The notes beneath the pieces are model-generated. The model worked only from the letters and a program-made list of their open reading frames with translations, was not told the origin of the DNA and did no database searches. A program made the translations under genes and the position numbers. 64,000 nucleotides of DNA, from assembly GCA_965112155.1 (NCBI GenBank), contig OZ218098.1; one strand, written 5' to 3'. Shown piece after piece: positions 4,817 through 64,000 of the stretch. Every line of letters starts with the position of its first letter. Position 1 is the stretch's first letter. This stretch comes from Podarcis liolepis. Taxonomy: Eukaryota.

Positions 4817-5149
<333 letters not shown>

Positions 5150-7777: not shown

Positions 7778-8008
<231 letters not shown>

Positions 8009-27666: not shown

Positions 27667-27689
27667 TATATGGGGTACAAGGTACTTAC

Positions 27690-29658: not shown

Positions 29659-29743
29659 CATATCCATCCATTACAGGCTTGAGGTCTTTGTACTGGGTAA
29701 TAACACTGACAGTTTCCTGAACAGTCAAGTCTCTGTACTTGTA
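29659..29743 (-). CDS. TSG101: TSG101 exon 2 (YKYRDLTVQETVSVITQYKDLKPVMDGY)
   Basis: 85 bp, AG/GT. Confidence 0.96.
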
Positions 29744-29831
29744 CTAGGGGGAAATAGATTTTTGAAAATCTTAAAAGCTCCACGAAAGACAACTTCCACT
29801 GAAAACATTTAGACTTCCTTCAACACAACTA

Positions 29832-31399: not shown

Positions 31400-31690
31400 C
31401 TTCCAGTAGCACCTTAAAGACCAACTAAGTTAGTTCTTGGTATGAGCTTTCGTGTGCATGCACACTTCTTCAGATACACTGAAATAGAAGTTGCCAGATC
31501 CTTCTATATAGTGAGAAGGTGGGGAGGGGTGTTACTCAGAAGGATGGTGGGAATGGGAGATAGGCAGAGCCTGTTGACGACTCTTAACGACTGTAATAGG
31601 TCTTACAGGAAAAGGCAAGGGGTGGGAAGGTGAGAAATGGTATTTTTTATTTTGACTATGGCAGACCAACACGGCTACCTATCTACTACT
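31400..31690. mobile_element. probable Penelope-like element remnant
   Basis: AGTAGCACCTTAAAGACCAAC...GAGCTTTCGTG...TTCTTCAGATAC and GACCAACACGGCTAC motifs recognised from squamate repeats; family assignment from memory. Confidence 0.5.
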
Positions 31691-32647: not shown

Positions 32648-32905
32648 AAAACCAGGCAGATAGCCTTCTCAGTTGTGGTGCCCGCCCTGTGGAACGCCCT
32701 CCCATCAGATGTCAAGGAAATAAACAACTGATTGTTAGAAGACATCTGAAGGCAGCCCTGTGTAAGGAAGCTTTTAATGTCTGATGTTTTACTCTGTTTA
32801 ATATTCTGTTGGGAGCCGCCCAGAGCGGCTGGGGAAAACCAGTCAGATGGGCGGGATATAAATAATAAATAATAGTAATAATAATAATAATAATTACTAC
32901 TACTA
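32648..32905 (+). mobile_element. L2-type LINE 3' end with (AAT)n tail
   Basis: GCCTTCTC..GTGG..CC...TGGAAC 3' motif, GCCGCCCAGAG, TAA-rich tail; reverse copy at 44367-44636. Confidence 0.75.
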
Positions 32906-33999
32906 CTGAATTCAATGAAGCTTACTCACATATAAGAATCAAGATTAGATTAAAATTAAATGGCACTATTTAGGTTACTCTGTAAGTACTATGCATAAAG
33001 AAGAAATAAGAGTTTGTGTTTTCAATAAACTTAATTCCACTGTAGCACAGCAAGTAAAAATACAGTACAAACAGCTTCATTTATTAACAATTTAACAACA
33101 AACCTACACTGAACTTTGCAAATCAACTGAACTTTGGTTTGATACTGATACCAGTTTGGCATTCTCATCCAGGTTTTATCATGAATCTAGTCACCTTTCA
33201 TCAATGTTCAGAGCCTTTATGTTCTACGGATTTCAGCAGAAGTATAAAGAACATTAACAACCTTCTCCAAATGAAATTCCCAGCACAAAAATGTTGCTTA
33301 TACAAGGAATTAGTGAACTAAGCTGCTGGGTGGCATCCTTTTCTTTGTAATTGACAAGACACGTATTCCTATAACCTAGTAAATTTAACCCTATAGTAAA
33401 TTTCTTACTTTTGAGAGTTTTAAAATTAAATGTTTTAACACTATCCAAGTACCTCAGAGTCACTAAAGCTCCCAAGTAAACTGTACCCAGCTGCTGCTAA
33501 CAGAAGGCACACTAGGTCAAGTTGTGTTAATTCACAATTTGGGCCCAAAGTACCTTTATACTCAAGGTACTTTGAGTATACTTTTGATCACTGAGATTCT
33601 CTGATGGTAACTAACCAACTCCTTCACCAACCTGAATGATCTCTGCTCACTTGCTGAGTTACATACTTATTTTAAAAATGTAGTACAGTAGTAGAAATAG
33701 TAATAATAATAATAAAACCAAATTTGTGTTTATTTAGACTTTAAAAACTCCTAAACTACTTGCTTACTAGTTTCCATGATTCCTTTAGCTACTAAAAGCT
33801 TAGTCGTACCCTTGTTCCTCATTTCAGAACGGAATTTAGCTTTAAATAGGCCACAAAGGGCAGCAAATGATTCCGGAAACCCACAAAAACAAAACACCCA
33901 ACTGAAAACTTGGGAGCGATCGCAACACGCCCATTATTTTCCTGTTAATAACTAGGGAGGCCTCAAAGAGTTAGCAAAAGGCGTTGGGTGCTAAGGGTG

Positions 34000-34670
34000 A
34001 TCCCTTTTTGGACTCGACAGACCAGGGACTATTTCGGCCTGGTCTTTCCCTTTGCGGACTCTCAGGAGGATCATTCTCGCGACCCACGAAATTAGAGACC
34101 CTTCCCATTCCTTCTGCCAGAAAGCCGGCCTCGTTTATTCGTGTCTGGCTAGGATATTTTTGTGGGTGCCCCCCCAGGCAGCAGGAAGAAGGGAAAGATA
34201 ATGACTCTGGAGGAAGTTTCGCTCGGGAAGCGGCGTGAGGTGAGGGGAGAGGGGCGGCATGGAGGCCCCCCCGGGGGGGCGAGCGCGGAGGAAGCCCCGA
34301 GGCTGTTCCCCCGGCAGAAGCCCGCTGGGAGGGGCTCCCCGGCCGGCCTCGCCGTTACCTTGCCAAGCATCTTCTTCAGCTGGCTCTCCGACACGGCCAT
34401 GGCGGCGGCGGCGGCAGCGGGCCCTGCCGGCCGCCGGTGGTCGTCGTTCCGCGCCCCTCCTGCCGCTCCTCCGACTCCCCGCGCGAACGAGGAAACCTGC
34501 CCCGGCCTCCCTTCCGGTGCTTCCTTTCCACCCGTTTCCGCTCGGCGGCGCGGCGCGACGTCACTTCCGGCGGCCAGGTGCCGCATGCGCGTGAGCGTAC
34601 ACTGCTGTCACTGACGAGCCCATAGAGATAGCAACGTGGAGAGGGTCACGCAGGCGCCGCCTAGTTTTTC
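34000..34670 (-). promoter_or_regulatory. TSG101 CpG-island promoter with ETS-CRE composite (CCGGAAGTGACG, 34559-34570) and NRF1-like site (34581-34590)
   Basis: High GC/CpG density; motifs read directly upstream of the ATG. Confidence 0.8.
34359..34400 (-). CDS. TSG101: TSG101 exon 1 CDS (MAVSESQLKKMLGK)
   Basis: Perfect Kozak GCCGCCATGG, GTAA donor, inside CpG island; the 10 exons sum to 1182 nt = 393 aa + stop. Confidence 0.97.
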
Positions 34671-38229: not shown

Positions 38230-38394
38230 TCAGAGTTTCAGCTGCTGTTGAAGATCATGAATCGAGGCAGCCGTGGACTGAAGCTCCTGTACCACAGTAC
38301 CTTTATCCAGCAGTTTGATGACTTCAGTCACTCCACTGATTCCAAGCACACAAGGCACACTTAAAAATACTTCAGAATTTATATTGTAACATCC
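38230..38394 (-). CDS. UEVLD: UEVLD exon 12 ([22 protein letters not shown]...LQQQLKL*)
   Basis: 165 bp to TGA; LDH C-terminal homology. Confidence 0.95.
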   Translation of the reverse strand, partial: GCYNINSEVFLSVPCVLGISGVTEVIKLLDKGTVVQELQSTAASIHDLQQQLKL

Positions 38395-38500
38395 CTAGAA
38401 AAGGCAAAACATAGTATTGGATATATTAGAATTCCTGGGACCCACAGGTTAATGTTTCCTCTATTCTAAAAAAGCAAAATCAGATCAGCCCTGTGTTTAC

Positions 38501-38624
38501 CTTCACCATCGTCGATATGGAATGTACTTTCCTTTTATCATTCAATATACTGTCTGCCAGATCAGCTATTGACAGGCCAACAGACCAGGATTTTTGGCCT
38601 CTTCCTTTCAGAACTTCCATGGCT
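38501..38624 (-). CDS. UEVLD: UEVLD exon 11 ([41 protein letters not shown])
   Basis: 124 bp, AG/GT. Confidence 0.95.
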
Positions 38625-39495
38625 CTATATAAAAGCAAAAGAACCAGGATTTACAATGCACTTTTTAAGCAAGCAATATGCCCCCTTTATAAACACCATA
38701 CATCACACTTGTATATCAACAAACGTGGTACACATTTTTGTAGTGGCCTTATTCACATGTTGTGCTAGCCAAACTGTCTAAATGTGAACAAGCAAGCGTG
38801 AGGGTACTTGCAGTAAGAAAATGCAGCTGCTTTGCTCCTCCCATGGTTGTCCTCCTTCCACACTAGCTATGCCATGCAAAACCATGGTTTGTTTGCCTTT
38901 GTGCTGCATTTGAACCCAGACTCATGGTTTGTCTGCCTCAGACAAAACACAAATGGTAAGCCAAGAACAAACCATCAGAATGCATGTGGTGGCTTTCGAC
39001 CAATCAAATGGTTACATATAGATTACATTTTCATGGCAACAGGTATTGAGCCTAGCAGAGCCTAACTAATTGTTGCTAATTTTATGACTAGCAGCAAAGC
39101 ATGTGTGAGCAATTTTCGACTCTTGTGTCTGCCCCCTCCCAACATCCTTAGTCATTACGTCAAGGTTTATGAGGTGTTAGCTGTCTAGAGTGGGCTACTT
39201 TCTTAGGTACAAGACCCTGAGTAAAGTATACGTATTTTAAGAATAGCACTGCTGACAGATAAGACTTCAACTAGAATTTGAGGCCTTTTATACGTAGCCT
39301 GATCAAAACGTGTTCAAGTAAAAATGGGGTTTAATAGGTACGTAATGAAGGTTTCCCTTTCATATCATGTTACTAGGGTGTAAATTAAAATTCAGAATTA
39401 GGCTGCACTCCTATATCAATTTATATTGGAATAACTCCCAGTTAACTCAGTGGGACTTACTTCTGATTGTGCTGCCACATGTCTAAGTGTTTTAC

Positions 39496-39583
39496 CTGTT
39501 AGCTAAGAGATGCTGGGCATTTTGATTCGCTATATCTTCATCCTGATGACTTGTCACTGAATTAGAAGCACTCCATGCTGCCA
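39496..39583 (-). CDS. UEVLD: UEVLD exon 10 (VAAWSASNSVTSHQDEDIANQNAQHLLANR)
   Basis: 88 bp, AG/GT, phases 1/2 fit neighbours. Confidence 0.88.
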
Positions 39584-40050
39584 CTGAAGAGGATAAAATT
39601 ACAATCAATGTTGTTTTTAAACATTTGCATTTTTATCTCAGGAATAATTTCTCTGTAGAGTGTGTGCTTTCCATTTTGCTTTTAAAGAGACCAATTGTAG
39701 GAATTCTATTCAGAGGAGTACATAACTCACAGATGTACAGAAAACACAGAATACGCAATAACCCGTCAGACAAAGAAACTGCATGAGAAGTCAGTGACAA
39801 AGCAACCACCACCGCAATGTAGTGTAAGCATAAAATATAGAATTGGAGAAGCTGTCTCTGAAACAGAACCACAAACTTCTTGTCATGGCTATCCATTAAA
39901 TAAATAACAGTAATTTAAACTGAAATATCTCCATATACAGTACTTCTATTAAAAATAATCACAATGTTTTCTGAAATTATCTCCTGATATAAAGTACACA
40001 TGTGGTACCCTAAACTGCATAGTAAGCTAAGTAGTAAGTCACCATTTTAC

Positions 40051-40224
40051 CTTTGTTTTCCCCTTGTTCACCAATAATCCAATTATCTTTGCCTCTGATT
40101 TGAGCTTTTAATAGGTTTGCAATAATGTATTGGAATCTTGCAGAGTCTAGATTACAACCAATCCCGATAACCCGACTTTTAGGAAATCCACTCATCTTCC
40201 ATGATACATAGGTCATTATTTCCA
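40051..40224 (-). CDS. UEVLD: UEVLD exon 9 ([31 protein letters not shown]...IIGEQGENK)
   Basis: 174 bp, AG/GT. Confidence 0.96.
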
Positions 40225-40807
40225 CTGTACATTTGACAAAAACACATTGAAAAGGGCAAATTAATTTGTATTCAGGTCAAAAAGACATAAAGGTTTCCAA
40301 TCAAGTTATCATTTATCTCTTTGGCAGTGGGGTTGATTGGATATCAGTAAATTATTCATTTTAAAAACAACAGCAACATCTCCAACAAATATCATGAAGG
40401 ATGTTTTAGTAAATTTGTAATCTTAACCCCACTTTCCTGGAAGTAAGCCCATTTAATATAACAGTACTTATTTCTGAGGAGACATGGTTTTGACTGTGCA
40501 TTATTTTGCACAGCTTAAATATAATTAAATATATCACTAAACTTGGTTAACACAATCACACTCTACAACATTTGGTTCTGGTAGAGTGAATTTCTGCTGG
40601 TTATTATTTGTTTCCAACAAAACACGATGAGAAGCTTTGATCCTTCAGAATCACTTGTTTCTTCACCGGCACCTCTCAGAATTTATGTCCCAAGAAGCAT
40701 GACCTACTGATTTTGTGAGACTTTTCCTGGTGCTTTGGGGTTAAGTAATGAGATTAACCATGCCGCATCGAAACATGCTTGTATACAAATATTTACAATC
40801 ATAAAAC

Positions 40808-41035
40808 CATAGAACTGTAGAGTTGGAAGTGACCCAGAGGGTCATCTAGTCAATACCCCCCTGCAAATCTCAACTAAATCATACATTACAGGTGGCCACC
40901 CAACCTCTGCTTAAAAACCTCCAAGGAAGGAGAGTCCACCACCTCTCATAGGAGTGTGTTCCACTGTCAGACAGCATTTACTGTCATAAAGGTATTCCTG
41001 ATGTTCAGTCGGAATCTCCTTTCTTGAAACTTGAA
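40808..41035 (-). mobile_element. CR1 LINE 3' fragment
   Basis: CATAGAA tail, GAGTTGGAAG.GACCC...GGTCATCTAGTC motif. Confidence 0.7.
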
Positions 41036-41302
41036 TCATGGAAGTACTAGTTTTCCTGTTACTCACTTCTCTAAAGAAAAATGTCAAAAGACTTATTCCA
41101 TATGTGTGTCAAGATATACACAACACACAAAAGGAAACTTTCTGGCCTAGTTTTCTACATTGTCCCAATACTTGACCACAAGATAGCAAACAGAGAACAC
41201 CCTGAAGCCTCTGTAAAGAAATAGGTTTATTAAGTATGAGAAATTACAAAGCACGTTATATCCAGGGAGCAAAAAATCATAAAAAGGTAAGTGCTGCCAT
41301 AC

Positions 41303-41473
41303 CTGGTTGAGAAGCCACAAGCAGTACACTTTGTTGGCTATAATGTGCTACTGAAGGAATGATGCCTCTGAACAGTTCAACATTGCTCTGTACAACATCC
41401 AGATAGGACTGAGCATTGCCTAAAGAATTCACTGTTAGCACCACCAGCTTTGAGCCTGCTGAGGCGGAAAAAT
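41303..41473 (-). CDS. UEVLD: UEVLD exon 8 ([32 protein letters not shown]...VASQP)
   Basis: 171 bp, AG/GT. Confidence 0.96.
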
Positions 41474-41841
41474 CTAAGAACACAAAGAAAGAATTTCTGC
41501 ACACGTCAAGGCGAGAGTATAAGACCTATTTCATTATTATTTTTTAAGTTCATGAACTGGACACATAAACTTTTGTTTTATCTAAAGATACAGGGTCGTA
41601 TCCAATGCTGTGCATGTGGAGTTCAACTTGTGCAATGGGGCTCCCCCTTTCCTTTCCTTTCCTTTCCTCTCCTCTCCTCTCCTCTCCTCACACGCCCTCA
41701 GAATCTGCTCCAAAGGTTCCTCCGACCCAGAGGATGCAAGAGGTGCTGCAGAGGAGAAGACAGGAAAGTTCTAGTGTGCAAGCAGAAGTCTGCTGTGTTA
41801 GCAGAACAGAAGCGTTGGATACGACCCGTACGAGAGTAAAA

Positions 41842-42192
41842 GTAAAGGTAAAGGGACCCCTGACCATTAGGTCCAGTCGAGACCGACTCTGGGGTTGCAG
41901 CACTCAACTCACTTTATTGGCCGAGGGAGCCGGCGTACAGCTTCCGGGCCATGTGGCCAGCATGACAAAGCCACTTCTGGGGACCAGAGCAGCGCACGGA
42001 AACACCGTTTACCTTCCTGCTGGAGCAGTACCTATTTATCTACTTGCACTTTGACGTGCTTTCAAACTGCTAGGTTGGCAGGAGCAGGGACTCAGCAAAG
42101 GGAGCTCACCCCGTAGCGGGGATTCGAACCGCCGACCTTCTGATCGGCAAGTCCTAGGCTCTGTGGTTTAACCCACAGCGCCACCCGCGTCC
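41842..42192 (-). mobile_element. Sauria SINE, full length
   Basis: tRNA-like head with GGTTCGAATCC B-box on minus strand, (ACCTTT)n tail, 13-bp TSD TACGAG(A/T)GTAAAA at 41829-41841 and 42194-42206. Confidence 0.9.
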
Positions 42193-42258
42193 ATACGAGT
42201 GTAAAAGGAGTCGCTAATTAAGCACTGTGCCACAACTTTCTCAGGCATATAGTGTGTG

Positions 42259-42261
<3 letters not shown>

Positions 42262-42299
<38 letters not shown>
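42262..42299. repeat. (AC)n microsatellite
   Basis: Read directly from the sequence. Confidence 0.95.
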
Positions 42300-42302
<3 letters not shown>

Positions 42303-42558
42303 TATATACACACACATGTATATCTCCTGCCTTTCTTTCATCGTGGAACCCATCTGTACACATGGTCTCCCCATCCAGGCTCTGGCTACACTCAAACTTC
42401 CTTAGCTTCATCACATGGGGCCTTCATGTGCTTTCAGACATTATTGCTACGAGTGAAATGTTCTTAGCAGCGATTCCAAGAATTACTTAGAAAGTTCATT
42501 TGAAGTATACAGTGGGGGGGACGGACCACCACACACATCTCAGAAGCCAACACAATAC

Positions 42559-42664
42559 CTCTGCTGATTTCCACATTAGGCAAGGCAAAGATTTCCAGGT
42601 CCATAGCTGCTCCTTTCATTGTACCTTCTGAGCAGTCCAAGACAACCACTCTGTCAGCAACACC
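42559..42664 (-). CDS. UEVLD: UEVLD exon 7 (GVADRVVVLDCSEGTMKGAAMDLEIFALPNVEISR)
   Basis: 106 bp, AG/GT. Confidence 0.95.
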
Positions 42665-43481
42665 CTGGTACAAATTGAAAGCAAAGAAGTAATTATTCAG
42701 TGGAGAAAAGATAAAATGGCATTCTGAAAGGGTTTAATACAACTCTTATTTATTTCTTTAAATGCTGACATACAATCCTATTATCTACACAAGCTGCTGT
42801 TAAATTTAAGCCAACAGCTATTCTCTCCCATCACACCAGTCATCTGGTTGAATCAAGTTGCCACTGCTAGAGACAATGTGCCTCTGAATCCCAATTGCTG
42901 GGAATCAAAAGTGGGAAGAGTGCTGCTCCACTCCAATCCTGCTTTCAGGTTTCCCATAGTCATTGCATTGGCCACTGTGAGAACAGGATGCCGGACTAAA
43001 TGGGCCTTTGGCTTTATCCAGCAGCCAGACTCTCCTGAAGATGGCCAGGCATAATTCGGCAGGCATTAAACACGCACTGAAATCCCTCCCATAGAAATCA
43101 GTAGGATGCCTGGATCATGACAAAATACCTGGAGATTCACAGAGCAATCTAAACCTCACCAGGGCAGCAGGTGAGTGGCAGATCCATGCTGAAAGCAACT
43201 GTGCTAGTAGCTTTCCAGCTGCTTATATTAGCCTCCTAAAAGTCCATACAGGCTGAATTCTTTTGGTGCTATTAGAAAATACACAATTTAAGACAGCATG
43301 TGCCAACTAAAAGCTATGGTTCCCATGTGCTGAGAAGTTATGCAAATAGACCCTCAATGCACAGTCCTTTGCAGGCTTACTCAGAAATACATCCCACTCT
43401 ATTCAAGAATAATTATTTTATCCCAGTTTGGAATCACTACAGAAGCAATCACAGTGGTCATTTCACATAAAGTATATATAC

Positions 43482-43600
43482 CTTTGCTGAAATAGCCAGT
43501 GCACAAGCAAGGCCCAGATCACCTGCTCCAATCACTGTAACTTTGTTAAATCCTCCATCATTTTTCTTTCCCTCTCCCTTGGACTGAATGTTGTCTTCAC
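43482..43600 (-). CDS. UEVLD: UEVLD exon 6 (...NKVTVIGAGDLGLACALAISAK), Rossmann GxGxxG
   Basis: 119 bp, AG/GT. Confidence 0.94.
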
Positions 43601-43973
43601 CTAAAATAACATGTAGTCATTAATATAAACAAATGCGCTCAACTTGGGAAGTTGCATGGAAAATGACTGGATGTAATGGAACAAACCAACCAAAAAAGGT
43701 TTAACTGAAACTATGGTGGTCTGTGAAGGACAAGGACCATATTGTACAGCCTTCTTCATATGAACACTAACTTCAAACTGAAGAAGAGCCCTGTTGGATC
43801 AGACCAAAAGTTCAGCCATTTCTCACAATGGCCAGTCAGATGCTTCAGGGATAATGGGAGGATGATAGCCATCTCTTGCTATTGTTCCTCAATGAAAGCC
43901 ATTTATCAATGACTGAATCCTCCATACAGTACAGAACTTGTCTCCTAAATGAAAACCCAAAGATGATGCATAC

Positions 43974-44109
43974 CTTCAGTGATTTTTGCAATGTAGGAGA
44001 GCAGCTCTGACTGTCTGGCTGCATCTGAAGATGATAATGAGAACAGGGGGAGCTCCTCTTCAAATTTTGCGCTCATTTCCTTTAATAACCCTATGATCAT
44101 GGACTGCGG
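43974..44109 (-). CDS. UEVLD: UEVLD exon 5 ([45 protein letters not shown])
   Basis: 136 bp, AG/GT. Confidence 0.95.
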
Positions 44110-44366
44110 CTGAAACAAATACAACAACAATTAGCCTCCTCCTCATCTTATTATGATATCCTTTCACATAAGTCTTAAAATGATTTACAAGCCTCCAACA
44201 AGAGCAACTAAAAATAGGTTCTTAAACATCACTAACAAAATATGCAAGGCAGAGACTTAAAACAAAACAGAACGAAAAATCCAGCTGGAAAAGCTTCTTG
44301 AAACAAAAATGTATTCAGTAGTTTCCAGAAACAACCACAGGCAGCAGGCACCTGTTGTATCTCAAA

Positions 44367-44636
44367 ATAACAACAACAACAACAACAACAACAACAATAA
44401 CAATAATAATAATTTATTTATACCCCGCCCATCTGGCTGAGTTTCCTCAGCAACTCTGGGTGGCTCCCAATCATGTATTAAAAACAATACAGCATTAAAT
44501 ATTAAAAACTTCCCTAAACAGGGCTGCCTTCAGATGTCTTTTACAAATAGGTTAACTGCTTATTTCCTTGACATCTGATGGGAGGACGTTCCACAGGGCG
44601 GGCGCCACTACCGAGAAGGCCTTCTGTCTGGTTCCA
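44367..44636 (-). mobile_element. L2-type LINE 3' end with simple-repeat tail
   Basis: Reverse-complement homolog of 32648-32905; (AAC)n(AAT)n adjacent. Confidence 0.75.
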
Positions 44637-45448
44637 CAAAACAGGGGCAGCTACATTGAAATGTCTGCTCTCAATTACTGTGGGCTTCTGATATTTTAGA
44701 GACTTCAAGGACAGACTCTCCCATAAAACACAGCCATCCACTGTGTATGTAAAGGGCAATGTGGTCTTTCATGGAACCCTATAGAGATTAAATGTCAGTA
44801 CCAGAGCCTTTAACGTGGTCTGGTACCACAATTTTAGATAGCAAACATTCTATGAACAAATGCCTAAATGGACTGAGAATCTGAAGCACTTTATGAACAA
44901 TTACTGTGCACAGGGCTTATCAGATTTCCCCCTTCATAGCTACATAAGCCAGTTATCAACTTTTCCCCAGAGAAGCAGAATCAAGATAGGGGCCACACAC
45001 AAAGGAGCAGGCCTTTCTTACAGGGATAGGGGCGTAAGAGGATCATGACCCATCCCAGTGGGGAACTCCGAGTACCTTTTCCTTTGCAAGTGAGATTTTT
45101 GCCATTCATTCATAAAAATGAAAAAGTAAAGCACTTTGGGGGCGCTGTTAGACAAAACACTGCCCCTGCAATAACGCTGGTTGGCCATGCCTCTGCTGAC
45201 AGAGAACCTGCAGGCCATGACTACAAATACACACTACTTTTGCTAGTCCAATAAAATAGCCTCTACTTTCTCTCACATTGCCTGTGTAGCCTATCTGGCA
45301 GGATGACAGATCATGTTAAAAGGCACGTTTTTATACAATTAAGGTACACAATATGGATGACATTAAATTAAGACTAAGACAAACACTGTAAACCGATTTT
45401 AGTAAAGCAATAATACTATTTTACATGACATGCACAGACATCCCTTAC

Positions 45449-45612
45449 ATGACTCCAGTTTTGTAGATAGGGCAAGTATATCCTTCCCCGGGCATCTACA
45501 TGCTTTCCTACAGAAATCCCCATGTTTGCAGTGGGCTTTAAGAAGCAGATTGGAGGAGTAAAAGGATGAGAATCTAAAATCCATAGGAAAATTGGAATGT
45601 TGTACAAATTAC
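45449..45612 (-). CDS. UEVLD: UEVLD exon 4 ([54 protein letters not shown]), UEV
   Basis: 164 bp, AG/GT. Confidence 0.96.
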
Positions 45613-46484
45613 CTGTCAAAATACAAAACACAAGCAACTATCAGCAACCACTGCTCCTTGACTGGTCATGTATACATCTTAAATTTTACACTTGATATTT
45701 AACCCATGGGTGGGCGTATTGTAGGATCTATTGTACTTTGTTTTTCACTAGAACCCCAAAGTCCATGATCTGGAGCCATAGGCTAAGAAGGCAAACATAT
45801 ACAGTCCAGGAATTTATTTTAAATGCCAGAACTGAGTTCACAGTCTTTTCACACGGGAAAAATCCACTCCTGGTTTCTGCTCAAACTCTCTTTGTTTCAG
45901 CAGCCTGAATAATGGAAGCAGGAAGACCTTTTGCACTTGCTCTTGAACAAGAGTTGATATTGGACACTCTATTAGAAATATATATTTACTTATTTAAAAA
46001 ACGTATATGCAGCCCATCAATATGAATATTTCCAGGGCAGCTTACAAAAGATGTACTATTGATATCAAGCAGGCATTGTCACTGTATTATTTTCAGTGCC
46101 TGCTGAAGACGTTCTTATTTAAACAAGATGTTTAGAAAGTTTGTATGAGTTTTAAGTTGTTTTAGTCTATTCTATTGTGGTTTTAAGAGCCACTATTGGT
46201 CTTGTCTGCTCAATCCACGGCAGCCTGGCTTCGCATGTCCTCACATGGTTTAGCCGGCCAGTCAAAGCTGTTTCCTGGGGTGTGGTTGCTGTCGCATGCT
46301 GACAGCTTGTAGGAGCCACAGATGAAAGATGAGTAAAGGGTGGGAACCAAAGGTGGACAAACTTCCCCAGAGGGAGCATGATGTGTCACCCACCAGAGGT
46401 ACTACCCCATCCCAAACATCCCATCCCACTTGCAAGTCCCAATGTATTATTAGGTAGCAAACAAAAACAGAGTGAACAACTTAC

Positions 46485-46550
46485 CCTGGTATTTCACTGG
46501 AACAGTGCCACTACAATTCAAAAGGTCTTTCTGGGAACCATCCTTAAAAG
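46485..46550 (-). CDS. UEVLD: UEVLD exon 3 ([21 protein letters not shown])
   Basis: 66 bp, AG/GT. Confidence 0.95.
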
Positions 46551-47524
46551 CTAAAGTTCAGAACATTAATTTGTATGCGCATATAGATTACATTTTTTCA
46601 GTAGTAGACAGCACAGTGAGACTGCCCTTCTCACTTGAGCACTCTCTGTTTGCACAGCTGCTGTGTACTGTGACAGAGAGGGGGCAGGCAAGGCACTGCT
46701 AAGGTTGGCACGGTGCAAATGCACGGGCGGAGTGTATCCGGCATTCCTGCCAGCAGGTTGGTACTGTGGAGATCTCTGCCCTCCCTCTCTCCATCTCGGT
46801 ATGCAGCAGGACACAGCCAGAGGGAGGTCACGTCAGTGGCACATCCCCACCATCTTTACATTTTTGTCATTATTTTGTTACCGATAATACTGCTTTATTA
46901 ACATCTGATATCAGAGCCAGATAACTCATTATTTTAAACGTTATACACCACCAGACTTTTTAAAACAACAAAGAAATCATGACAGCAAAATAAAAAGAAC
47001 ATGTAAAATACAATACAGCCAGAAAGGAAAATAAAACAACTTCATTGGTTTGCTGCTATTTGCTTTATTTTCCTGTCTGGCAGCAAATAGCAGCAAACCA
47101 ATACAAAGCTCACTCTACCACCCCAAACTTCATAAAGGAACAACAGTAAAGTGATTACTTAACTCAGGCAGCCCCAAACTTGGCCCTCCAGCTGCTTTGG
47201 GACTACAGCTCCCATCATCCCTGACCACTGGTCCTGTTAGCTAGGGATGATGGGAGTTAAAAATTGACACAAGCTGAAAGCACACTCGCTTGGGAGTAAG
47301 CCCTACTGAATACTGCGGGCTTACTTTCTAGTAAATATACATAGGATTCTGCTGCTGCAGGTTATATTGTCAATAATGAACATAAGTAACTAGAGTTGAA
47401 TTCCTTACTTGAAATTACTTTCACTGACTACTATTCAAACTTTTATATTAATCACTATACAAAACAATGACATTCTCACACAATCATTTTTCCAATGGGC
47501 CAAAAAAATTGACGGTACTCTTAC

Positions 47525-47609
47525 TGTAGGTATTCATTGCAAATGTGGTGTTTGGGTACGACTCATGTACGCTCTTCAGTTCTTCTATGGTCAGATCTCG
47601 GAATTTATA
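47525..47609 (-). CDS. UEVLD: UEVLD exon 2 (YKFRDLTIEELKSVHESYPNTTFAMNTY)
   Basis: 85 bp, AG/GT. Confidence 0.95.
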
Positions 47610-48006
47610 CTGCAGAGAGAACAAGGATAATTTTATTCTTTTAAGCAATTTTATATTGATGCGCCATGCCTTTAAAACTTGTCATTGTTATTCAGCAATT
47701 TAGCCTCACAGCTGAAATTGGAAGTCTAAAGCACTGATTCTTCTGAACTGGAAACCTAATTCGCTTCACTATCAATACAGCCCATTCCCATGTGAAACTC
47801 ATGCTGTGTAGATCTGCATTTATTAGAATGACTGCACCTTCCTTTAATTACACCTTTGTTAGCAGTACCTTTTCGGATGTGCATTGAGTTAAAGCACTAT
47901 AGATAAAATTCTGCTCTTTAAAACACGCACACACCACTTTTAAGTATGTAAAGCAGGGGTGGGGAATCGAATCGGGCCAGATCCAGAATTGGTAAACCCT
48001 ACACAG

Positions 48007-48143
48007 TAAGGTTACCAGACCTCCCCGTTTCCTGGGGACAGTCCCTGGATTTATAAATCAGTCCCCTGACAAAATCCACTAAATTCGACTGAAGTTGAAA
48101 AGTCTTCCTGGATTCACTGGGGGAAAAAAATCTGGTAACCTTA
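48007..48143. mobile_element. hAT-type MITE
   Basis: TIR TAAGGTTACCAGA / TCTGGTAACCTTA; near-perfect 8-bp TSD CT(A/C)CACAG. Confidence 0.8.
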
Positions 48144-48589
48144 CTCCACAGGGCTAGTTGAACAGGTAGGAAGAGCTGTCAGTCACTTGATGTCAGATGA
48201 CTCTAAGTGCACTCCCAGTTCTTCATTGGCAGCCATGGCTTGAACTCACCTTCCAAACATTCTTGCCATCATAATTGCAACACAGATTACACGAATTTAA
48301 CACACGGAAGATTGGGCTTCCTTCCGAGCCAACATACGTAGGATTCTGCTCCTTGAGCAGAGATGGGGAACCTGTGACCCTCCTGAATGACAACTAGGGC
48401 TGATGTGCGGTAGGTTTCTAGAGATCCCTACATCCTGGGTCAAGGAGCAAGTTCTGCATTTCTAGGGCAGCTAACCTAGAAGCGCTGCATGCAGAAGCCT
48501 GTGCCCTAAATGCACCCTACAATGAGGCCTTGCTTACATCGCTGCCGGCAGCGGTTGGCACACATATTTCGCAGTCTAAAGAGTCACCC

Positions 48590-49050
48590 TCAGCCACGGC
48601 CATGTTGCAACCCTATATAACTTGTGGTGAGCAGGCAGGCAGCTTGCAACAGCGTCTTAACCGGGGACATCCCGAGTGACTCGACGGCAAAGCGGCGCCC
48701 ATGGGAAGCCGGGGGGGAGTCGCTCCCTCGGGCCGCCCACCCGGCGCGCGGAGAGGAGCCCTCGCGCCCGCCCAACCTGCCGCCGCCGCCCGCCTTGCCT
48801 TGCTCAGCCACTTCCTCAGCTGCTCCTCGGAGAACTCCATCGCCGGCGGCCCGTGCGAGGAGGAACAAGCACTGCTTCCTGCTGCTGGCGCGCCTGGAAA
48901 GGCGAGCCGGCCGGCCGCGCGGCCTCTCCCAGTTCCTCCTTTTCCCCAGGCCCGCCCCTTGCTTAGGTAGACTGCCTAGGTTTTAACCCCGCGCCTTGTG
49001 GGGAAGCGGGTTGCTTCTCGCGTCGAGGCGCGAGGCCTGCGCTTGAACCC
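48590..49050. promoter_or_regulatory. UEVLD CpG-island promoter (possibly bidirectional)
   Basis: High GC/CpG density, GC-box CCCGCCCC near 48951. Confidence 0.75.
48799..48840 (-). CDS. UEVLD: UEVLD exon 1 CDS (MEFSEEQLRKWLSK) with GC donor
   Basis: Kozak GGCGATGG, 42 bp like TSG101 exon 1, AAG|GCAAGG donor; the 12 exons sum to 1440 nt = 479 aa + stop. Confidence 0.9.
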
Positions 49051-49985: not shown

Positions 49986-51306
49986 ATGGCAGTGAGCCAT
50001 GATGGCTATGCTTTGCCTCTGCAGTTGGGAGGCAGCAAAGCCACATGAGGGAAGAGTTGCTCATGCTCGAATCCTGCTTGCGTGTTTCCCACAGACACCT
50101 GGTTGGCCACGATGACAAGAGGATGCTGCAGTATATGGGTCACTGGTCTGATCCAGCAGGCTCTTCTTAGGTCCATATTCCCAGAAATGGCATAGGGCAA
50201 CTTTTGGGGCAGCAGCCTAGCTTGTTCTTCTGTGAAGCTCTGTGGAAGAAAAATCAAGCCATAATGTTGTGATTAGGGTAAAAGTTAATTCAAGATTCTA
50301 CTTACTGAAGCAAGACAGTTGCATTGGGGAAGACCCCATCAGCCAGATTCTCTTCTGTGCTGATTGATGTTCTGCTCAGATGTTCTGGAATGTAACAGCT
50401 TCTATAGGGATGGCAATGTTGCCACAACTTGGTTCATGAGAGACCACAAGAGATTAGCTTTGAAAGGAACACCAGAAACAGCAGTGCTGGTCAAAACCCC
50501 ATAACCATTCTATACTCCCTTCACCTTTTCACTTTTCAACATCTCACCCTCCTTCATGCTGACTCTGCTTTTTTACACTCCAATGGGAGATGTTGTGATA
50601 AGATACAAATAGGCTCAGGCCCCAGACCCATACATTCCACTTCCACAGCATGAATGGTGCTATAGTTGGTAAGAAGAGAGAAACTATTTCACAAAATAGT
50701 ACAATGACAGCAGCCCCAATAGCAAGCTGCTCCGCTTGTTATGCCCATTGCACCAGCTGGTCCCTGGTGAGGTCTCCTTGGTTGGCTTAGGCCTCCAAGG
50801 CCCGGGGCAAATGTACCTTGCCGCCCCCTCCCCTCTGCGTGGATCTGGTGGCCAATAGGAGAGAAAACTGAAGTTGATTGGCTGACCACTCCCAAGAGGG
50901 GAAAACGTTTGGAACCACTAACTTAAGGAAACTTCAGCTTTTAAATTTTGTATCTGATTTGTAACTATTCCCCCCTCCCTGTAAATGTAGTTTATAAAAA
51001 CTCCAAACCAAAATGAAATAGTTTATTTAAACAAAAGCTTTTGTAACTCCTGTATCTATCTGAAATGCCTTTGGTTCTATCAGAGAAACTATTTTGCTGA
51101 TGTCATGCTGGTTGAGTCAATTGTTACATAACAAATGATGTCACAATCTAGTTCACTGCACAGTCTGGCTCATCACAAATAGCCACCAAGAAAGCCAAAG
51201 TACTGAGCTGCCTAAAATCAGCTGAAAGGTGATTTTCTTTTGTCCTTAAAAAATTAGCCATATCAAGTCACATTCCGTAAGTGGGAAAACACTGAGAAAT
51301 TGTACA

Positions 51307-51375
51307 ATGATTGTTGTTGGTTGGCTGATTTTCCTTTTGGCTTTGCATCTGATGCATAGAGTTCCAAACGCTAAG
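51307..51375 (+). CDS. MISFA: putative MISFA/Kastor-like microprotein, coding exon 1 (MIVVGWLIFLLALHLMHRVPNAK)
   Basis: ATG with A at -3, hydrophobic N-terminus, strong AAG|GTGAGT donor in phase 0; syntenic position between UEVLD and SPTY2D1 on the opposite strand; resembles the recalled mammalian MIVLGWM.. N-terminus. Confidence 0.65.
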
Positions 51376-53078
51376 GTGAGTAAACTTTGAAATACCAGTT
51401 GGAAATGCTGCCCTATGTCACCCTAGTTTGCTGTTTGATGCAAAACCAAAGAGTTTGATTCTTACAAACTTAGGATGTGTTCAGTCCACTGTTTTATGTG
51501 GTTTTGCACCCAGACAATAGGAAAGCATCCTCATCATGCCAAGGTACTTATCTGTCACCATCAGGACAAATGGCCCCACCCTTTAAATAGAGCTGAGACT
51601 TGTGTGCCTTTAGAACATGTGTGCAAACCCATATAAGCCACATGACCCCACAGTAAACCATCTGAGGAATTGTGGCAATGAGAATATATGGGGTGCTGTA
51701 GTAAGCGAAGAAGTGCCCAAAATAAACCAGGTGTAGCATTACCCTAAGCATGAAGGAAGGAGATATGCATGAGTCCCAACCTTTATGCAACACTGGTTCC
51801 ACTAATACGGATGGAAGCATGTTACAGGTGTTGATGGAGACTATTGAAGCTTTTAAAACTACAACTTTATTGCAGTGGTTCCAAAATACCTATTAATTAT
51901 TAAGCCTTTCTCTATTTCCAGAAATCTAGGTGAGACACCCCTTATAGTTCAGAAGGATAATAAAAACAATCAATTTTTTATATTGATTATAGTTCAGTAA
52001 TTCTTTATTGTCACTGATAAGTGTAAACTGTTTAATTATTATTTACGGTTATTTAATGTTACTGTTTACTATTATATTCTAATAGATTATTGAATATTGC
52101 TTTATTTAAGTTGTTTAAAGTTTTTGTGACTTTTTTGTATTGCATCAGATTGTTATTACATGTGTGATCTTTGCTGTTTTGTTGTTTCTTCAGCTTGTAG
52201 GCTGCCTTGTGTATAGTCTTATAGAAAGACGGTATACAAATTAAAAATGAAATGAAATGAAAAAGAAGCATAATACCTCAGCCTAAAGTACAGAGTTTTT
52301 TGTTGCTAAGGTGTACTCAAGTTCCAACAGCTTGAGATAGATTACTGGGCCTGTGGGTGACAAGTTTCCACTTGTACTTAATATTTCCTCGTGAGCTTTC
52401 ATCATACTCCTTGCTCAGCACTGCTGAGTAGCAGGGACGCGGACTTATAAAAAAACGAATTTTTGAGGGGGCTCGGGCCCCCTCAAGCCCCATGGAGTCG
52501 GCGCCTATGCTGAGTAGGCATGGCACACTGGGAAAAGACAACATGGTTGTCTGTGGCTGTGTGATTGATTGTGTGGAAGTCTTTTTGGCTGAAGCTATAA
52601 AACTTCCATACAATATTTGTTGTGCACTACAGTCCCAGAGCTGGAGAAGAACTCATGGGGGTTCGAGATATGTGGGAATTCGGAGGAAGGATTCAAAAGA
52701 CATGAAAATTGGCCAGTTCTGATGCTTTATTAAAGAAAGGTATAGACTTACAGCAAAACGCAGCCTGCCAGTTCTCCTTGCATCTCGTGCGCAACGGACA
52801 CCACCAGGCAAGAAGATGATGGACTGTCTGCACCCAAGCAAAGATGCACACATTCTTTATACAACAGGACAGCATACGTCGCATGTCCTGTGGAATTGAC
52901 TCAATCATTAACCTGGGGATTTGTAAACTTTATGAGAATTGTGTGTCTGGTGGTGCAAATGCACAGGGACATCTTCACAGCTTACTTGAACACTGCCACA
53001 CCACACACACACTTTGCCCTGTCTCCATCCACTAGCATTTATTGCTTGAGGTGTTTGGTTCACTGTAAGTCCCATTAG

Positions 53079-53177
53079 CCTTCTGCACCAACCATCAGAT
53101 CAAATAAGCTCCAACGTTCGGCCCAGTCAAAAGAAACACAGATATGGTTTGGGAAAGATGTGCCTGTCCTTGAGTAG
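53079..53177 (+). CDS. MISFA: putative MISFA/Kastor-like microprotein, coding exon 2 (PSAPTIRSNKLQRSAQSKETQIWFGKDVPVLE*)
   Basis: TAG acceptor in phase 0 (weak pyrimidine tract); weak similarity to the recalled mammalian C-terminal half. Confidence 0.5.
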   Translation, partial: PSAPTIRSNKLQRSAQSKETQIWFGKDVPVLE

Positions 53178-54817
53178 TTCAGCAGCCTCTTTGAAACTCA
53201 ACATCATACTTACCGGTAACTCTAATTACTGAGTAAACTTTAGATGAAGGGGAGAAAGTGCATAGTATAAAAAGACTTGAAAAATATTTCAAATTCTGTA
53301 TGATATTTCATATTTGCACACTCACACCCACAAAATAGGTTAAATCTACTTTTTAGTTATTCATGCCCCAGAAAGCTTCCAATTCATCACTTTTCCAACA
53401 AAATTGATTTAATGACAACTCACAGGCAGTTTAAACATTGTTCTGTCACTCCCATCCTGCTGTGTTCATCCCATATGTTGCTCCAGAGTGTCCCTTGTGA
53501 AGCCACAGGGGCTGGGGGGGGGGGCAGCCAGATAAGCCCTAGGGCATTACTGAAATTCTACTTGCTCTTCTCAGGTTTCAGCCTACAAATGGCACAGGGC
53601 ACAGATCAGATTACTGAATGTCTCAGTTTTGATGATTTTTAAAAAGTGTTTCTAGCCCCAATGGTTGCAAAGCTGTTACGCTTGAAAGGTAGTGGTCAGT
53701 GCCTGGTGAAATAGAGGTGATCTGCTGAGCATCTAAGCCCTCTGAAAATCAGAATAAAAATGCAAAATAGTAAGAATGACACGAAAAAATTATGCATATA
53801 AGGTCTTATGCATACTTGACCCAATGCATCTGGGTAATTGATTTGCTTCTCATGCAGAATTGCCTAGTGAAGAGGAACAAAACGAAAGCTGAAGGTGTTA
53901 TCCCTAGACCAGTTTGTACCTGCGTACCTTAAAATCAGCCTCTGAGTCAAGCCTCAACATATGGCCCTTTTTCTCTATGAATGTTGGTTGAAGAGTGAAA
54001 TGCTTCCCTCCAAACTTTTCAGTAATATTCTGTGTGTTTGGTTACAGGCTGAACCTGCAAAGAACGAAGGTGATAAGCATTAACTGGCATTGTCCTTTAG
54101 AGGAACACAACCCAGGACAGACTTCCCATCTTCTTTAAGAGCAACAAAGATGTTCCAGTTCAGAAGTTTTAAAACATCAGCAAGAAAGGAGTTTCAGGAG
54201 CTGATGCTTACTGCAGTACTGAAGGCAATGAAGCATATTGTTTCTGTTGTTGGTAACACATAAATTGATTGCACAGCATCATGTTATATGTTTATGACCA
54301 AGTTACCCGGACCTTCAAATATGTTACCACGTTTCACGATGCGCAGGGCAAAGTGGATCTCAAGCATTACCTATAAGAGCATATTTGAAATAGATTATGC
54401 TTCTGTTTAAGGGACAATCACATAGAACGTTTCGTATCCGATACGATTTCTGATGGACTATGTACTTTTAAAATTGCCTACTACCTGCAGTAGCAAAATT
54501 CACTTGGTGTTCACTATTCTGAAAATATAATGGGTGGAAAAAGACATAAAGGTTAATGTCTGTGGAATGATTTATTTAGTCTTTTAATGCAGGTGCCGCC
54601 TTTCCCATGAAGATTTGAAGGCATTTCACACAAATGTGAAAGTTAAATACTGTAATAGCAAGCAACAAACTTCTTAATTTTAAAGTTTAATTTTTTTAAA
54701 AAGCATGCCTATTTATTGTCTGCTGATTAGCATTCCAAAATAAGCATTGTATAATGAACTATAGCACAGTTATCCTATTCCCATGTAAATAAGCCACACA
54801 TAAAGGAGTATATAGCC

Positions 54818-60071: not shown

Positions 60072-60168
60072 TTAACGTGTTCTCAGCTTCTTTGCCTGCT
60101 TCTTTCGTTTCAATTCCTCTTCTTCACGTCTTAGCTCTTCTAGATCTTCCTGCATTCCAAGCCTCAAG
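60072..60168 (-). CDS. SPTY2D1: SPTY2D1 last coding exon (LRLGMQEDLEELRREEEELKRKKQAKKLRTR*)
   Basis: AG acceptor, phase 2, TAA stop; SPT2 C-terminal domain. Confidence 0.95.
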
Positions 60169-61496
60169 CTGCGGAATAAAGATTTAGTTACACTAAAATC
60201 TGAAGATAATTAAACCCAAAATGTAGGAGCACAAAAAGTCCCTAGCCAGGAGGAAATCAACATAACCCCTCTTACAATTACCCATCACTAGACAGCTTGC
60301 AGAAATCTTAGCTAGGTTTAGGATATTCCCTAGAGAAGCCATATTAGAAACTGCTTTACATTTCCAGGGATGCAACAGCACTGGAATATGCTACAATTAG
60401 ATTGGGAATATAAAAATAAATGGTTCCCATAACATATTGAGATGGCACAAGGTTACAAGCCAACCCAATACTAAAAACATGCTATATAAATACTTCTTAG
60501 AAAAGCTGGCTAATTGTAATTGCTGCTGCAATGGGCCTGAACAATAATGATATCCCCCAATTAAGAGTATAGATATAGTGAGTTAGAGCAGCTGAAATTT
60601 GTATTCACATGATGCTTTGAAGATGCTACAAGGATCAAAATACCTCCAGACGATCCTATAAATGACCAGACAGGAAACCAAACTGATTGCATTTATATTC
60701 TATTTTTGCACAGTACACTTCCAGAGGCTTAGGCATGTAAGCTTGTTGCAGTGAAACCACAGAACAGGGACCACCAATCTTTTTGGAGCAGTGGGCATTT
60801 TACAAATTCCTGGCCAGTCCTGAGGGCGCTAGTCACAAAATAGTGCACATGGACAGTGTGGTGTAACACAAAATTAGAGAGAAAACTACCCCCGACAACC
60901 TTATGCTCACTATGGGGAGCCAGCTGATTGTGGAGACCATGCAATACACACAGAATTGCTATGCAATAAAAACAGAGAGCATTCCTCTGTACTAGGAAAA
61001 ATATACAAGGTGGCCACATCACACTCCCCCCCTCAGAGAAGATACCTGTACATTTTGCCCCATAACTTTCATTTTAGGAGAGCTAGACACTTGCTTATTT
61101 TAAATGAAAACTCAGAGTTGGGGCGGTGGTGTTCCCAGGGGCACCAATAAAAACCAATTAGTGCCAGGTTGGCAACCCCTGCCATGGACTGTTTTGCAGC
61201 AGCTTAAAGACCTGCTTGAATTAAATGTTCCATTCTTCCAATCATTCTGCCTGTGCAAGCATCCCAGCTTGCCAGATGGAACAATACCCCCCATTCTGTT
61301 CTAGGGATTCTGCTGACCCTTCCCCAGAGCCAATTTTGAGAGGCCTGTGGGGAGAGGCAGGGGAAAGCACTGTTGCACAAGCAGAGGTCCTTGTGCAGGG
61401 CTTCTGCCGACAGAGCTGGTTAGGTGAAAAATGTATTAAGTATTGCAATGAAATACAAGAATTACAGTCTTAGCTTCAATATATGCTAAATAAGTA

Positions 61497-61721
61497 CAGT
61501 GGTGCCTGGGTTACATACGCTTCGGGTTACAGACTCCGCTAACCCAGAAATAGTGCTTCAGGTTAAGAACTTTGCTTCAGGATAAGAACAGAAATTGGGC
61601 TCCAGCGGCATGGCAGCAGCAGGAGGCCTCATTAGCTAAAGTGGTGCTTCAGGTTAAGAACAGTTTCAGATTAAGTACGGACCTCTGGAACGAATTAAGT
61701 ACTTAACCTGAGGTACCACTG
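61497..61721. mobile_element. Tc1/mariner-pogo type MITE, family A (inverted relative to the 11501 copy)
   Basis: TIRs, TA TSD, internal homology to 11501-11718. Confidence 0.9.
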
Positions 61722-62308
61722 TATGCAAAAAACTCACAATAGCAGGAATTGGTCCATATAATCATCTTAGCTTCACTGAGTAGAACATTTTTAATGGGAC
61801 AAAAATCATTGTATCCATTTGGGCCCAATATTTAAAATTGTTTTTAGGAGATCACTGCCTTTCTGAGGAAGCTACAGTCTTTGACAGTCTTCCCAGGGAC
61901 CATCATTCAAGCAAGCATGGATGCTGAGGCTCTATACACTAACAAAGATGGGTAAGAATCCATCAGGAATATTATCCCAGTTGATCTCTCCACCAAGTTG
62001 GTCACATTGTCCTCACTTATTTCAAATTTATGGAGGGCTTTTGGTTTCAGGTTAACAGCACTGTGATGAAAACGGGCAGATCTCCACAGCAAGCCAATAT
62101 ATTTATGGCTGACTTTGAATCATTTCCACAGCTTCTCTCCCCAAAAATCTCCCCTTCACAGACTTCAACCATTTTGCTCACATTGCTTGCCATGGCTCAC
62201 AATGATTCCAAACTCATCATTATTTGGAATCACATTAATGGAACTGTTTCTTTTTGATGAATGACCAAAATCTGGGAGAGTGAAGTGGATAGATTCAACT
62301 CTGCTTAC

Positions 62309-62386
62309 CTTTTGGCTTCCTCCTTCTGTTGCTCCTTCCAGCTGCTTTCCATGTAACGTAAGGCATAATCACTTTCGTCTTTATAT
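62309..62386 (-). CDS. SPTY2D1: SPTY2D1 penultimate coding exon (YKDESDYALRYMESSWKEQQKEEAK)
   Basis: 78 bp, AG/GT, SPT2 motif. Confidence 0.96.
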
Positions 62387-62886
62387 CTGAGAGTAATAGG
62401 CAAAATGAAATGCAATATGTTCACTTTTGCTATAATACATAAATGCATGTGTTTCAGAACCAGAATTGTATATGCATTTAAATAAAACAGAAATATGTTT
62501 CAAGTAACCTTATAATTATATGGCTGGACCAAGTCAGTTCCTTTCAGTGCAGGGGTGGGGATCTTGAGTCTCAGTAATCATATGCTTTGGCAAATACTAG
62601 TAAATAAATAGGCTGCATATAGTAGTATATCAGCCCCTTTCTTGCATTTTTTGAGTACATGCACATTCATATTTTTTATCCTCAATTATAGTTGACAGAA
62701 ACCATTGAGAACTTTTGCTCAAACTCTGTTTTCTTAAGGAGCTCCTGATTAATTTCAAAAGTACTCAAGCAGACTAAATTATGAAACTGTATCGGGGAAA
62801 ACTTTATTTATGCACCTTACATGAAAGTTATAGAGACTGTCATAACTACACAATGGTATAAAATGATGCAAAATTCTTTTTCTCAC

Positions 62887-63049
62887 CTAGCCCGATCATA
62901 GCCAAATATCTCTTTAATATGTCTAGAGATTTCTTCCTGGGACTCTCCTTCATCATCTATGAAGTCCTCCATTTCAGAATCGTATTCATCTTCATCGTCT
63001 TCATATTGCCTTTTACTAGTAATCGGTGGAAGAGATGGTCTTGGAAAAC
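62887..63049 (-). CDS. SPTY2D1: SPTY2D1 internal coding exon (FPRPSLPPITSKRQYEDDEDEYDSEMEDFIDDEGESQEEISRHIKEIFGYDRA); upstream exons outside the window
   Basis: 163 bp, AG/GT, acidic DFIDD and IFGYD SPT2 motifs. Confidence 0.95.
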
Positions 63050-64000
63050 CTAAGGGGTGAAATTCAGAAATGTAATACACACTTCCAAACCCGCTGCAAC
63101 ATTTATTTTTGTGCTGCATTGGTTTTTCACTAGCTAATACAGTCACTTCATGAGGCTTTACATGGGTTACATTCTGGACAGCTATTGGTGTAATGAAGGC
63201 AGATTAACTTTTGGCCCTCCAAATGTTGCTGGACTACAAGTTCCATCATTTCTGATTGCTGGCCATGGCTGACGGGGGCTGATGTGGGTTCATCATCATC
63301 TGAAGGCACACAAGTTAGTCATCCCCGCTACCCAGCATTTAAGTAACAAATTTAGTTGGATCACTGTAAATGGCTTGGCAAAAAGAAATGTTCTTTTCAA
63401 ATGCAGGGGCGTATTGCATCAACACAACAAATCTACTCTTGGAATACAAATCTGAAATCCTCCTCATAACAAGAATACTAAATGGTGTGTGTTTACTAGG
63501 CCTTTTGCTTCAAGCATTATTAGGTAGCTTATTATGTACCAGGCAGATTATTATGTACCAGACGCAAGGCCCAACTGGTCCGACATCCTGTTCTCACAGT
63601 GACCAACCAGATGCTTATAGAAAGTTTGCAAGCAGGACCTGAGTGCTATAGATAGATAACAGTGGCAGTAGAACATCATGGCAAGCCCTATCCTCCATTA
63701 ATGCTTCCAATTCACTTTCCAACATATCTAAGATGGTGGCCATCACATCTTATAGAAATGAATTTCATAGTTGAACTACCGGTACGTGCTGCATGCAGTA
63801 GTTCTCTTTTATCTGTCCTGAATCTTCCAACATTCAGGTTAGTTGAATTGCCCTGGGTTCCAGTATTATTTGGGGGGAGGGGATAATTCCCATGCAGTTT
63901 CTCTACACTAGAACACAACATCTGCACTTAATTCCATCTGCTTGACATGTTAGGCCCAGATTTGGAAAAGCAGGGCAAGGCGAAGGATGATTTGTGCTTA

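Follow-up and report, generated by a model that had tools for sequence, protein, structure and literature searches.

A probable lizard ortholog of the sperm microprotein Kastor in the UEVLD-SPTY2D1 interval of a lacertid

Introduction

Does the microprotein Kastor, described as a mammalian peptide, have a counterpart in reptiles? In the mouse, Gm9999 encodes the 53-aa Kastor (UniProt Q8C5Y2) and the 40-aa Polluks (PMC8885739). According to the same source, both peptides have an N-terminal anchor in the outer membrane of mitochondria and a cytosolic C-terminus, and bind VDAC3 directly; Kastor acts at spermatid steps 6-11, and its loss leads to uneven mitochondria and bent sperm. Because the two peptides were considered to be 'conserved only in mammals', it was proposed that their gain gave mammals the helical mitochondrial sheath of the sperm (PMC8885739). 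The non-mammals named in that source are chicken, Pelodiscus, Xenopus and zebrafish, all searched by tBLASTn and none of them a squamate; tBLASTn gave no match in chicken or softshell turtle.

The locus investigated here lies in a window of 64 kb, by which we mean the whole stretch of DNA that was analysed. The original prediction described a two-exon gene for a 55-aa membrane microprotein, a probable reptile ortholog of MISFA/Kastor. It gave the N-terminus of Kastor, which matches the sequence printed in PMC8885739, and the view of Kastor as a mammalian peptide, which is that of the same source.

Results

Gene neighbourhood

Pfam and tblastn placed a lactate dehydrogenase (LDH) gene (+), TSG101 (-), UEVLD (-), the candidate (+) and SPTY2D1 (-) in this order along the window (Table 1). 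In a protein search (111 matches among 149 candidates), a 57-aa exon of UEVLD showed 100% identity with the Podarcis lilfordi cluster; its identity was 98% with Rhineura, 91% with Pogona and 70-75% with the matches from mammals. For UEVLD over all tblastn segments (nine proteins tested), counting ragged ends, identity was 91.9% with Podarcis, 81.4% with Rhineura and 61.3% with platypus. Since identity thus declines from Podarcis through Rhineura and Pogona to mammals, the window is lacertid, as judged by UEVLD. SPTY2D1 was recognised by a Pfam SPT2 match at 62886-63203 (E 7e-7).

The window starts inside the LDH gene, which we take to be of the LDHA type. It is the single LDH gene before TSG101 (gap 8350-9796), where the mouse has Ldhc between Ldha and Tsg101. 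This fits the absence of a testis LDHC duplicate at this lizard locus.

We take Gm9999, Misfa and SPTY2D1OS to be one gene, for which the sources show only a common chromosome and interval. Gm9999 lies on mouse chromosome 7 (PMC8885739), the mouse gene order is Ldha, Ldhc, Tsg101, Uevld, Misfa, Spty2d1 (PMC11042286), and human SPTY2D1OS lies between UEVLD and SPTY2D1 (bioRxiv 10.1101/2021.05.01.442281). The candidate occupies the gap between UEVLD and SPTY2D1, the same gap as mouse Misfa. It is on the plus strand and SPTY2D1 on the minus strand; the mammalian orientation was read from the names SPTY2D1OS and SPTY2D1-AS1, not from coordinates.

Table 1. Features of the candidate gene and its neighbours in the window.
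Feature	Position	Strand	Remarks
Lactate dehydrogenase gene, partial	2846..8350	+	synteny marker; Pfam Ldh_1_N and Ldh_1_C; tblastn segments
TSG101	9796..34400	-	synteny marker; Pfam UEV and Vps23_core; tblastn of bird gene models including TSG101
UEVLD coding span	38233..48840	-	placed by 12 tblastn segments of the Podarcis lilfordi protein; head to head with the candidate
Four bZIP-type sites	51098..51143	+	165-210 nt upstream of the ATG; candidate promoter for spermatids
Coding exon 1, 23 codons	51307..51375	+	residues 1-16 form a hydrophobic anchor, followed by a short polar linker; homolog of exon 1 of mouse Kastor
Predicted intron 1, phase 0, 1703 nt	51376..53078	+	very strong donor, weak acceptor
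Predicted coding exon 2, 32 codons and TAG (53175-53177)	53079..53177	+	polar, net basic tail
Putative untranslated end of exon 2	53178..53215	+	donor at 53216
Candidate non-coding last exon	53575..53758	+	putative; from the strongest downstream acceptor (53574, rank 1 of 348) to AATAAA at 53753
SPTY2D1 3' coding exons	60074..63203	-	tail to tail with the candidate; runs past the window; last coding exon read by eye

The first exon and its similarity to Kastor

The ATG at 51307 opens 23 codons that end at an AAG/GTGAGT donor (51375/51376) in phase 0; coordinates and sequence were re-read and agree with the original prediction. With approximate frequency tables, which underlie all splice-site scores given here, this donor scored 8.0 bits. 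It ranked first among the 412 plus-strand GT sites in 49000-56700 and had a higher score than the top nearby GT at any of 11 UEVLD exon ends (-1.4 to 6.4). The same interval contains 113 open ATG-started stretches of 23 codons, eight of them followed by GT and exon 1 alone by GTRAG; in the whole window, GTRAG follows two of 779 such stretches. Exon 1 was second of the 113 in hydrophobicity, with a mean Kyte-Doolittle value of 2.52 over residues 1-16 of the peptide. Donor, GTRAG and hydrophobicity set exon 1 apart from chance by its own properties. The start codon has an A at -3, and there is no other ATG from 51141 to 51306.

All comparisons with mammals were counted by eye, without gaps, from the mouse query sequence and the oligo table in the supplements of PMC8885739. 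The 'subject' rows in Fig. 1c of that source were set aside, several of them being identical to the mouse query despite weak E-values. For the DNA comparison, the native mouse codons 3-5 were recovered from the guide RNA and the stated edit.

Exon 1 of the lizard and of mouse Kastor share 9 of 23 residues (M1, I2, V3, G5, W6, F9, M16, P20 and A22). At constant composition, matches would be expected at 1.7 of the 22 non-Met positions, and at least eight matches have an exact permutation p of 6.1e-5. Among the ATG stretches of the interval, the expectation is 1.0e-3 comparable matches, falling to 7.3e-5 if a GT is required at the same codon (23/24). In the 200-nt genomic repair oligo for Kastor, the donor also directly follows codon 23, in phase 0 (PMC8885739). 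The DNA of exon 1 matches the mouse at 38 of 69 bases, or 35 of 66 when the ATG is left out (binomial p of 1e-6 to 8e-5 at a background of 0.25-0.30).

A hydrophobic short ORF beside a good donor might resemble Kastor merely by composition, all the more so as the candidate was chosen with foreknowledge of place and target and compared by eye. The composition-preserving permutation, the number of matches expected with GT at codon 23/24 and the agreeing DNA similarity all speak against such a coincidence. So does the lack of overlap with the repeats common to the rest of the window, on which ground a repeat-derived exon was rejected as well. We regard chance resemblance as highly improbable.

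Of the six identical residues that have degenerate codons, five differ in the third base, and six of the changed codons are one base apart. Because the shared residues thus differ mostly at synonymous third bases, the pattern is what an old coding exon would show under selection on its protein. Synteny, the identical length and intron phase of exon 1 and the similarity of its protein and DNA are the reasons why we consider it very probably the Kastor ortholog exon, and the claim of a reptile ortholog of MISFA/Kastor is supported on the same grounds.

Predicted splicing to the second exon and the 3' end

The spliced product would comprise 55 aa. The AG at 53078 and the phase-0 continuation to a stop are present as first described, but the acceptor is weak: it scored -3.7 bits, rank 110 of the 348 downstream AGs, and at each of 11 UEVLD exon starts the top nearby AG scored higher (-1.9 to 8.1). 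A second AG lies 9 nt upstream. Since the splice signal alone does not single out 53078, the 51375->53079 junction is a prediction.

The motif PT[LIV][KR], which comes from the beginning of Kastor exon 2, occurs within the first eight residues after just one of the 348 AG sites, namely 53078, and the lizard stop lies 27 residues past the Thr of the motif, the same as in mouse. Among 5000 shuffles, 370 had the motif, 19 the motif and a stop within two codons and four the motif and a stop in exact register; the motif was picked after viewing the sequence, so that these figures overstate the case. Overall similarity of exon 2 to the mouse, by eye, was 4 of 30 residues and 28 of 84 bases (p 0.05-0.29, not significant). 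The comparison with mouse MISFA to which the original prediction had pointed holds by eye for exon 1 and the intron position; for exon 2 the similarity falls short of significance. Exon 2 has a mean hydropathy of -0.77, with five basic and three acidic residues.

Exon 1 could belong to a true Kastor ortholog that uses another acceptor (e.g. 53574, 54047 or 51921) and therefore has a different C-terminal tail. In its favour, 109 downstream AGs outscore 53078, and the best of them, at 53574, opens a phase-0 tail 180 nt ahead of AATAAA; splicing exon 1 directly to this site would give a different tail of 26 aa. Yet the Kastor-like motif with a stop in register is confined to 53078 among the 348 sites, and the donor at 53216 is reasonable (3.2 bits, rank 7 of 412) and defines an exon there. 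We therefore consider another acceptor unlikely, and exon 2 as drawn in Table 1 likely.

The donor at 53216 closes an internal exon of 137 nt, with the stop 38 nt before the junction. The 50-nt rule for nonsense-mediated decay suggests that the stop is near enough to the 53215/53575 junction to escape decay. The donor mirrors that 3' of the mouse Kastor stop, where GTGAGT follows directly (PMC8885739). Together with the 53574 acceptor and the AATAAA at 53753, it suggests a UTR intron (53216-53574) like the mouse one.

Further downstream, at 54044-54083 (+), an 11-codon phase-0 frame follows a good acceptor (rank 8 of 348) and, by eye, faintly resembles Polluks exon 2 (two identical residues in the first ten). 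A first exon to match this frame was not found upstream.

Upstream promoter candidate

The bZIP-type cluster upstream of the ATG consists of two one-mismatch CRE-like sites (TGATGTCA), one TGAGTCA and one PAR-type site (GTTACATAAC). Four of the 19 such sites in the window fall within these 50 nt, and four or more sites never arose in 2000 shuffles of the 300 nt upstream (mean 0.16), for a motif set selected after viewing the sequence. Across the window, TGANGTCA was not enriched (7 seen versus 9.7 expected). CREM-tau drives spermatid genes via TGACGTCA or half sites (PMC3091680); the lizard sites are one-mismatch variants, neither the consensus CRE nor the half-CRE as defined there. Because of these mismatches and the lack of overall enrichment of TGANGTCA, the cluster is suggestive only of a spermatid promoter.

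Database searches

Pfam assigned no family to exon 1, exon 2 or the exon-1 frame. A word-index protein search with the 46-aa open frame that holds exon 1 returned no candidate of 25-81 aa, and none of the four scored candidates of 82-2000 aa matched. The ESM Atlas gave no usable match for exon 1 or exon 2, PDB sequences gave none for exon 1, and Rfam none in the window. HMMER matched exon 2 to two of 1.84 billion representatives, Reg_prop proteins of bacterial type with 1093 and 1129 aa; the relation to this beta-propeller repeat came from two summed short stretches and was treated as chance. A relation of exon 2 to lactonases, from seven PDB chains at E 1.5-1.7, was rejected. Hence, no homologous protein record was found for either exon, and so none from a second reptile that would support the ORF, in searches that have limited power for queries so short.

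This result, together with the weak acceptor, would also suit a recently silenced remnant of a Kastor ortholog. However, an intact ATG and frame, the best donor of the interval, the synonymous bias and a clustered promoter-like element would be unlikely to last long without selection. We consider a silenced remnant very unlikely, and it is likely that the lizard gene is still expressed in testis.

In the literature on Kastor, Gm9999 and its aliases, judged by titles and the openings of abstracts and with subscription journals mostly outside the search, we found no report of a non-mammalian Kastor ortholog.

Other features of the window

An intact SGNH/GDSL-like exon of about 190 codons (19895-20475, -) lies in the intron that separates the TSG101 exons 22646-22530 and 12325-12113. 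Its match to Pfam Lipase_GDSL_2 (E 1.5e-4) is below the cut-off. Over 198 aligned residues it shares 72% identity with the C-terminal end of a gene model from Alligator sinensis, in which the exon is spliced in frame after the UEV and proline-rich exons of TSG101. The catalytic Ser block and the GGND block are present, but in both species Leu stands in place of the usual final His. The exon may be a conserved alternative last exon that yields a UEV-SGNH pseudo-enzyme isoform, with a possible origin in a DIRS/Ngaro retroelement domain. The TSG101 introns also contain open frames of 208 codons (23683-24306, -) and 85 codons (16847-17101, -) without a Pfam match.

A MITE-like element with terminal inverted repeats is present in three copies (49244-49528, 27247-27668 and 29830-30181), one of them in the UEVLD promoter region. 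At 54930-55059, 3' of the candidate gene, there is a tandem pair of units of about 59 nt that are 90% identical.

Discussion

Our analysis points to a lizard Kastor ortholog that, on the sequence of one genome, is real and probably functional. We hold with moderate confidence that it is the lacertid ortholog at the Gm9999/Misfa locus, inherited in place from the amniote ancestor and working as follows. A CREM-type promoter just 5' of 51307 would turn the gene on in spermatids. The mRNA would have two or three exons, joined by the 51375->53079 splice and probably containing the 53216-53574 UTR intron, with the donor strongly and the acceptor moderately predicted. By its hydropathy, the lizard peptide has the layout of the mouse peptides, an N-terminal hydrophobic segment followed by a polar C-terminal tail within 40-60 aa. 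The N-terminal helix of the 55-aa peptide would, as in mouse, be a signal anchor in the outer membrane of the mitochondria and leave the basic polar tail in the cytosol. By homology, the peptide would bind VDAC2/3 and help to size, shape and pack the midpiece mitochondria of the sperm.

By analogy with mouse, a role as an outer-membrane partner of VDAC is on balance favoured. Doubt about this mitochondrial role stems mainly from the higher hydrophobicity of the helix and the missing Gly11 and Gly17, which could indicate routing to the ER or weaker packing against VDAC. Mitochondrial signal anchors are less hydrophobic than ER signal anchors. The expressed ortholog might accordingly have another job, as an ER or secretory membrane peptide or a cleaved signal peptide, with VDAC binding arising in mammals. 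Besides the more hydrophobic, leucine-rich helix without these glycines, the diverged tail would agree with this. The sperm midpiece offers a further point: in Sceloporus it has tiers of mitochondria with dense bodies between them, and the string 'helic' does not appear in the text of the source (PMC3364797). Our literature search found no description of a lacertid sperm midpiece. Against another job, M1, I2, V3 and W6, which both mouse VDAC binders have in common, are all kept in the lizard. The lizard peptide also has no basic n-region and carries basic residues after the helix, and a Pro stands at -3 of the obvious cleavage site, the position addressed by the signal-peptidase rule. We consider a role away from VDAC unlikely, and the VDAC-binding outer-membrane peptide remains our preferred reading.

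A lizard ortholog contradicts the published mammal-only range. If syntenic, it would move the origin of the gene to the ancestor of reptiles and mammals, a dating from one lizard genome. This ancestor lived about 320 million years ago. The ortholog would make the sheath hypothesis testable, and its few conserved residues are those likely to form the contact with VDAC. The candidate is a clear case of a split-exon microprotein that is taken as lineage-specific because homology search fails on exons of 23 residues.

Comparison with known systems

The closest counterpart is Kastor itself. Lizard and mouse share the UEVLD-SPTY2D1 interval, a 23-codon exon 1 with a phase-0 intron and 9 of 23 residues in this exon. 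Both peptides combine an N-terminal hydrophobic helix with a polar tail (55 aa in the lizard, 53 aa in the mouse), with the stop in equal register and a donor shortly 3' of it. They differ in that the lizard tail is nearly unalignable and has two additional residues at the start of exon 2, behind a weak acceptor. Its helix is richer in leucine, has His14 and His17 and lacks Gly11 and Gly17, with a hydropathy of 2.52 versus about 1.93 in the mouse (the latter computed by hand). Furthermore, the lizard candidate is non-mammalian.

Sirena1 also lies in the Uevld-Spty2d1 gap. It is an oocyte lncRNA limited to mouse and rat and oriented as Uevld and Spty2d1 (PMC7102984), and a preprint equates human SPTY2D1OS with mouse Sirena1 (bioRxiv 10.1101/2021.05.01.442281). 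The lizard candidate shares this interval, but Sirena1 has the opposite orientation. We therefore rejected this mouse/rat-limited lncRNA as the counterpart of the candidate.

With Polluks, the lizard peptide shares the first four residues and W6, and in both a phase-0 intron follows the anchor exon. Within the first ten residues the lizard equals Kastor at six and Polluks at five; further on it follows Kastor. The donor of Polluks follows codon 24, in phase 0, and leads to an acceptor and second exon of its own (PMC8885739). Polluks thus differs from the lizard in its 24-codon exon 1 and its own exon 2, and also in an aromatic/basic/proline block past the helix, whereas the lizard exon has 23 codons and no such block. 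A second Polluks-type exon in the window was rejected. The single occurrence of MIV..W in six frames of the 64 kb is that of exon 1, tblastn detected no second copy of either exon in the window, where a very diverged copy could escape it, and six short motifs gave no matching exon in the window (one unrelated intronic match). Hence, the lizard locus appears to lack the mammalian two-peptide layout of Kastor and Polluks, a matter separate from what defines Kastor itself.

The common start and exon design of the two mouse peptides lead us to suggest tentatively that Kastor and Polluks are tandem paralogs derived from a single microprotein gene of amniotes, of which lizards keep one Kastor-like form; this is possible, though short of being favoured. 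The lizard start agrees with both peptides, and one copy is present in the window. The strings 'paralog' and 'duplicat' do not appear in the main text and supplements of PMC8885739. If true, a spermatid VDAC-binding peptide would predate the helical sheath of mammals, and the mammalian novelty would be a duplication that yielded the late-acting Polluks, rather than the origin of the peptide.
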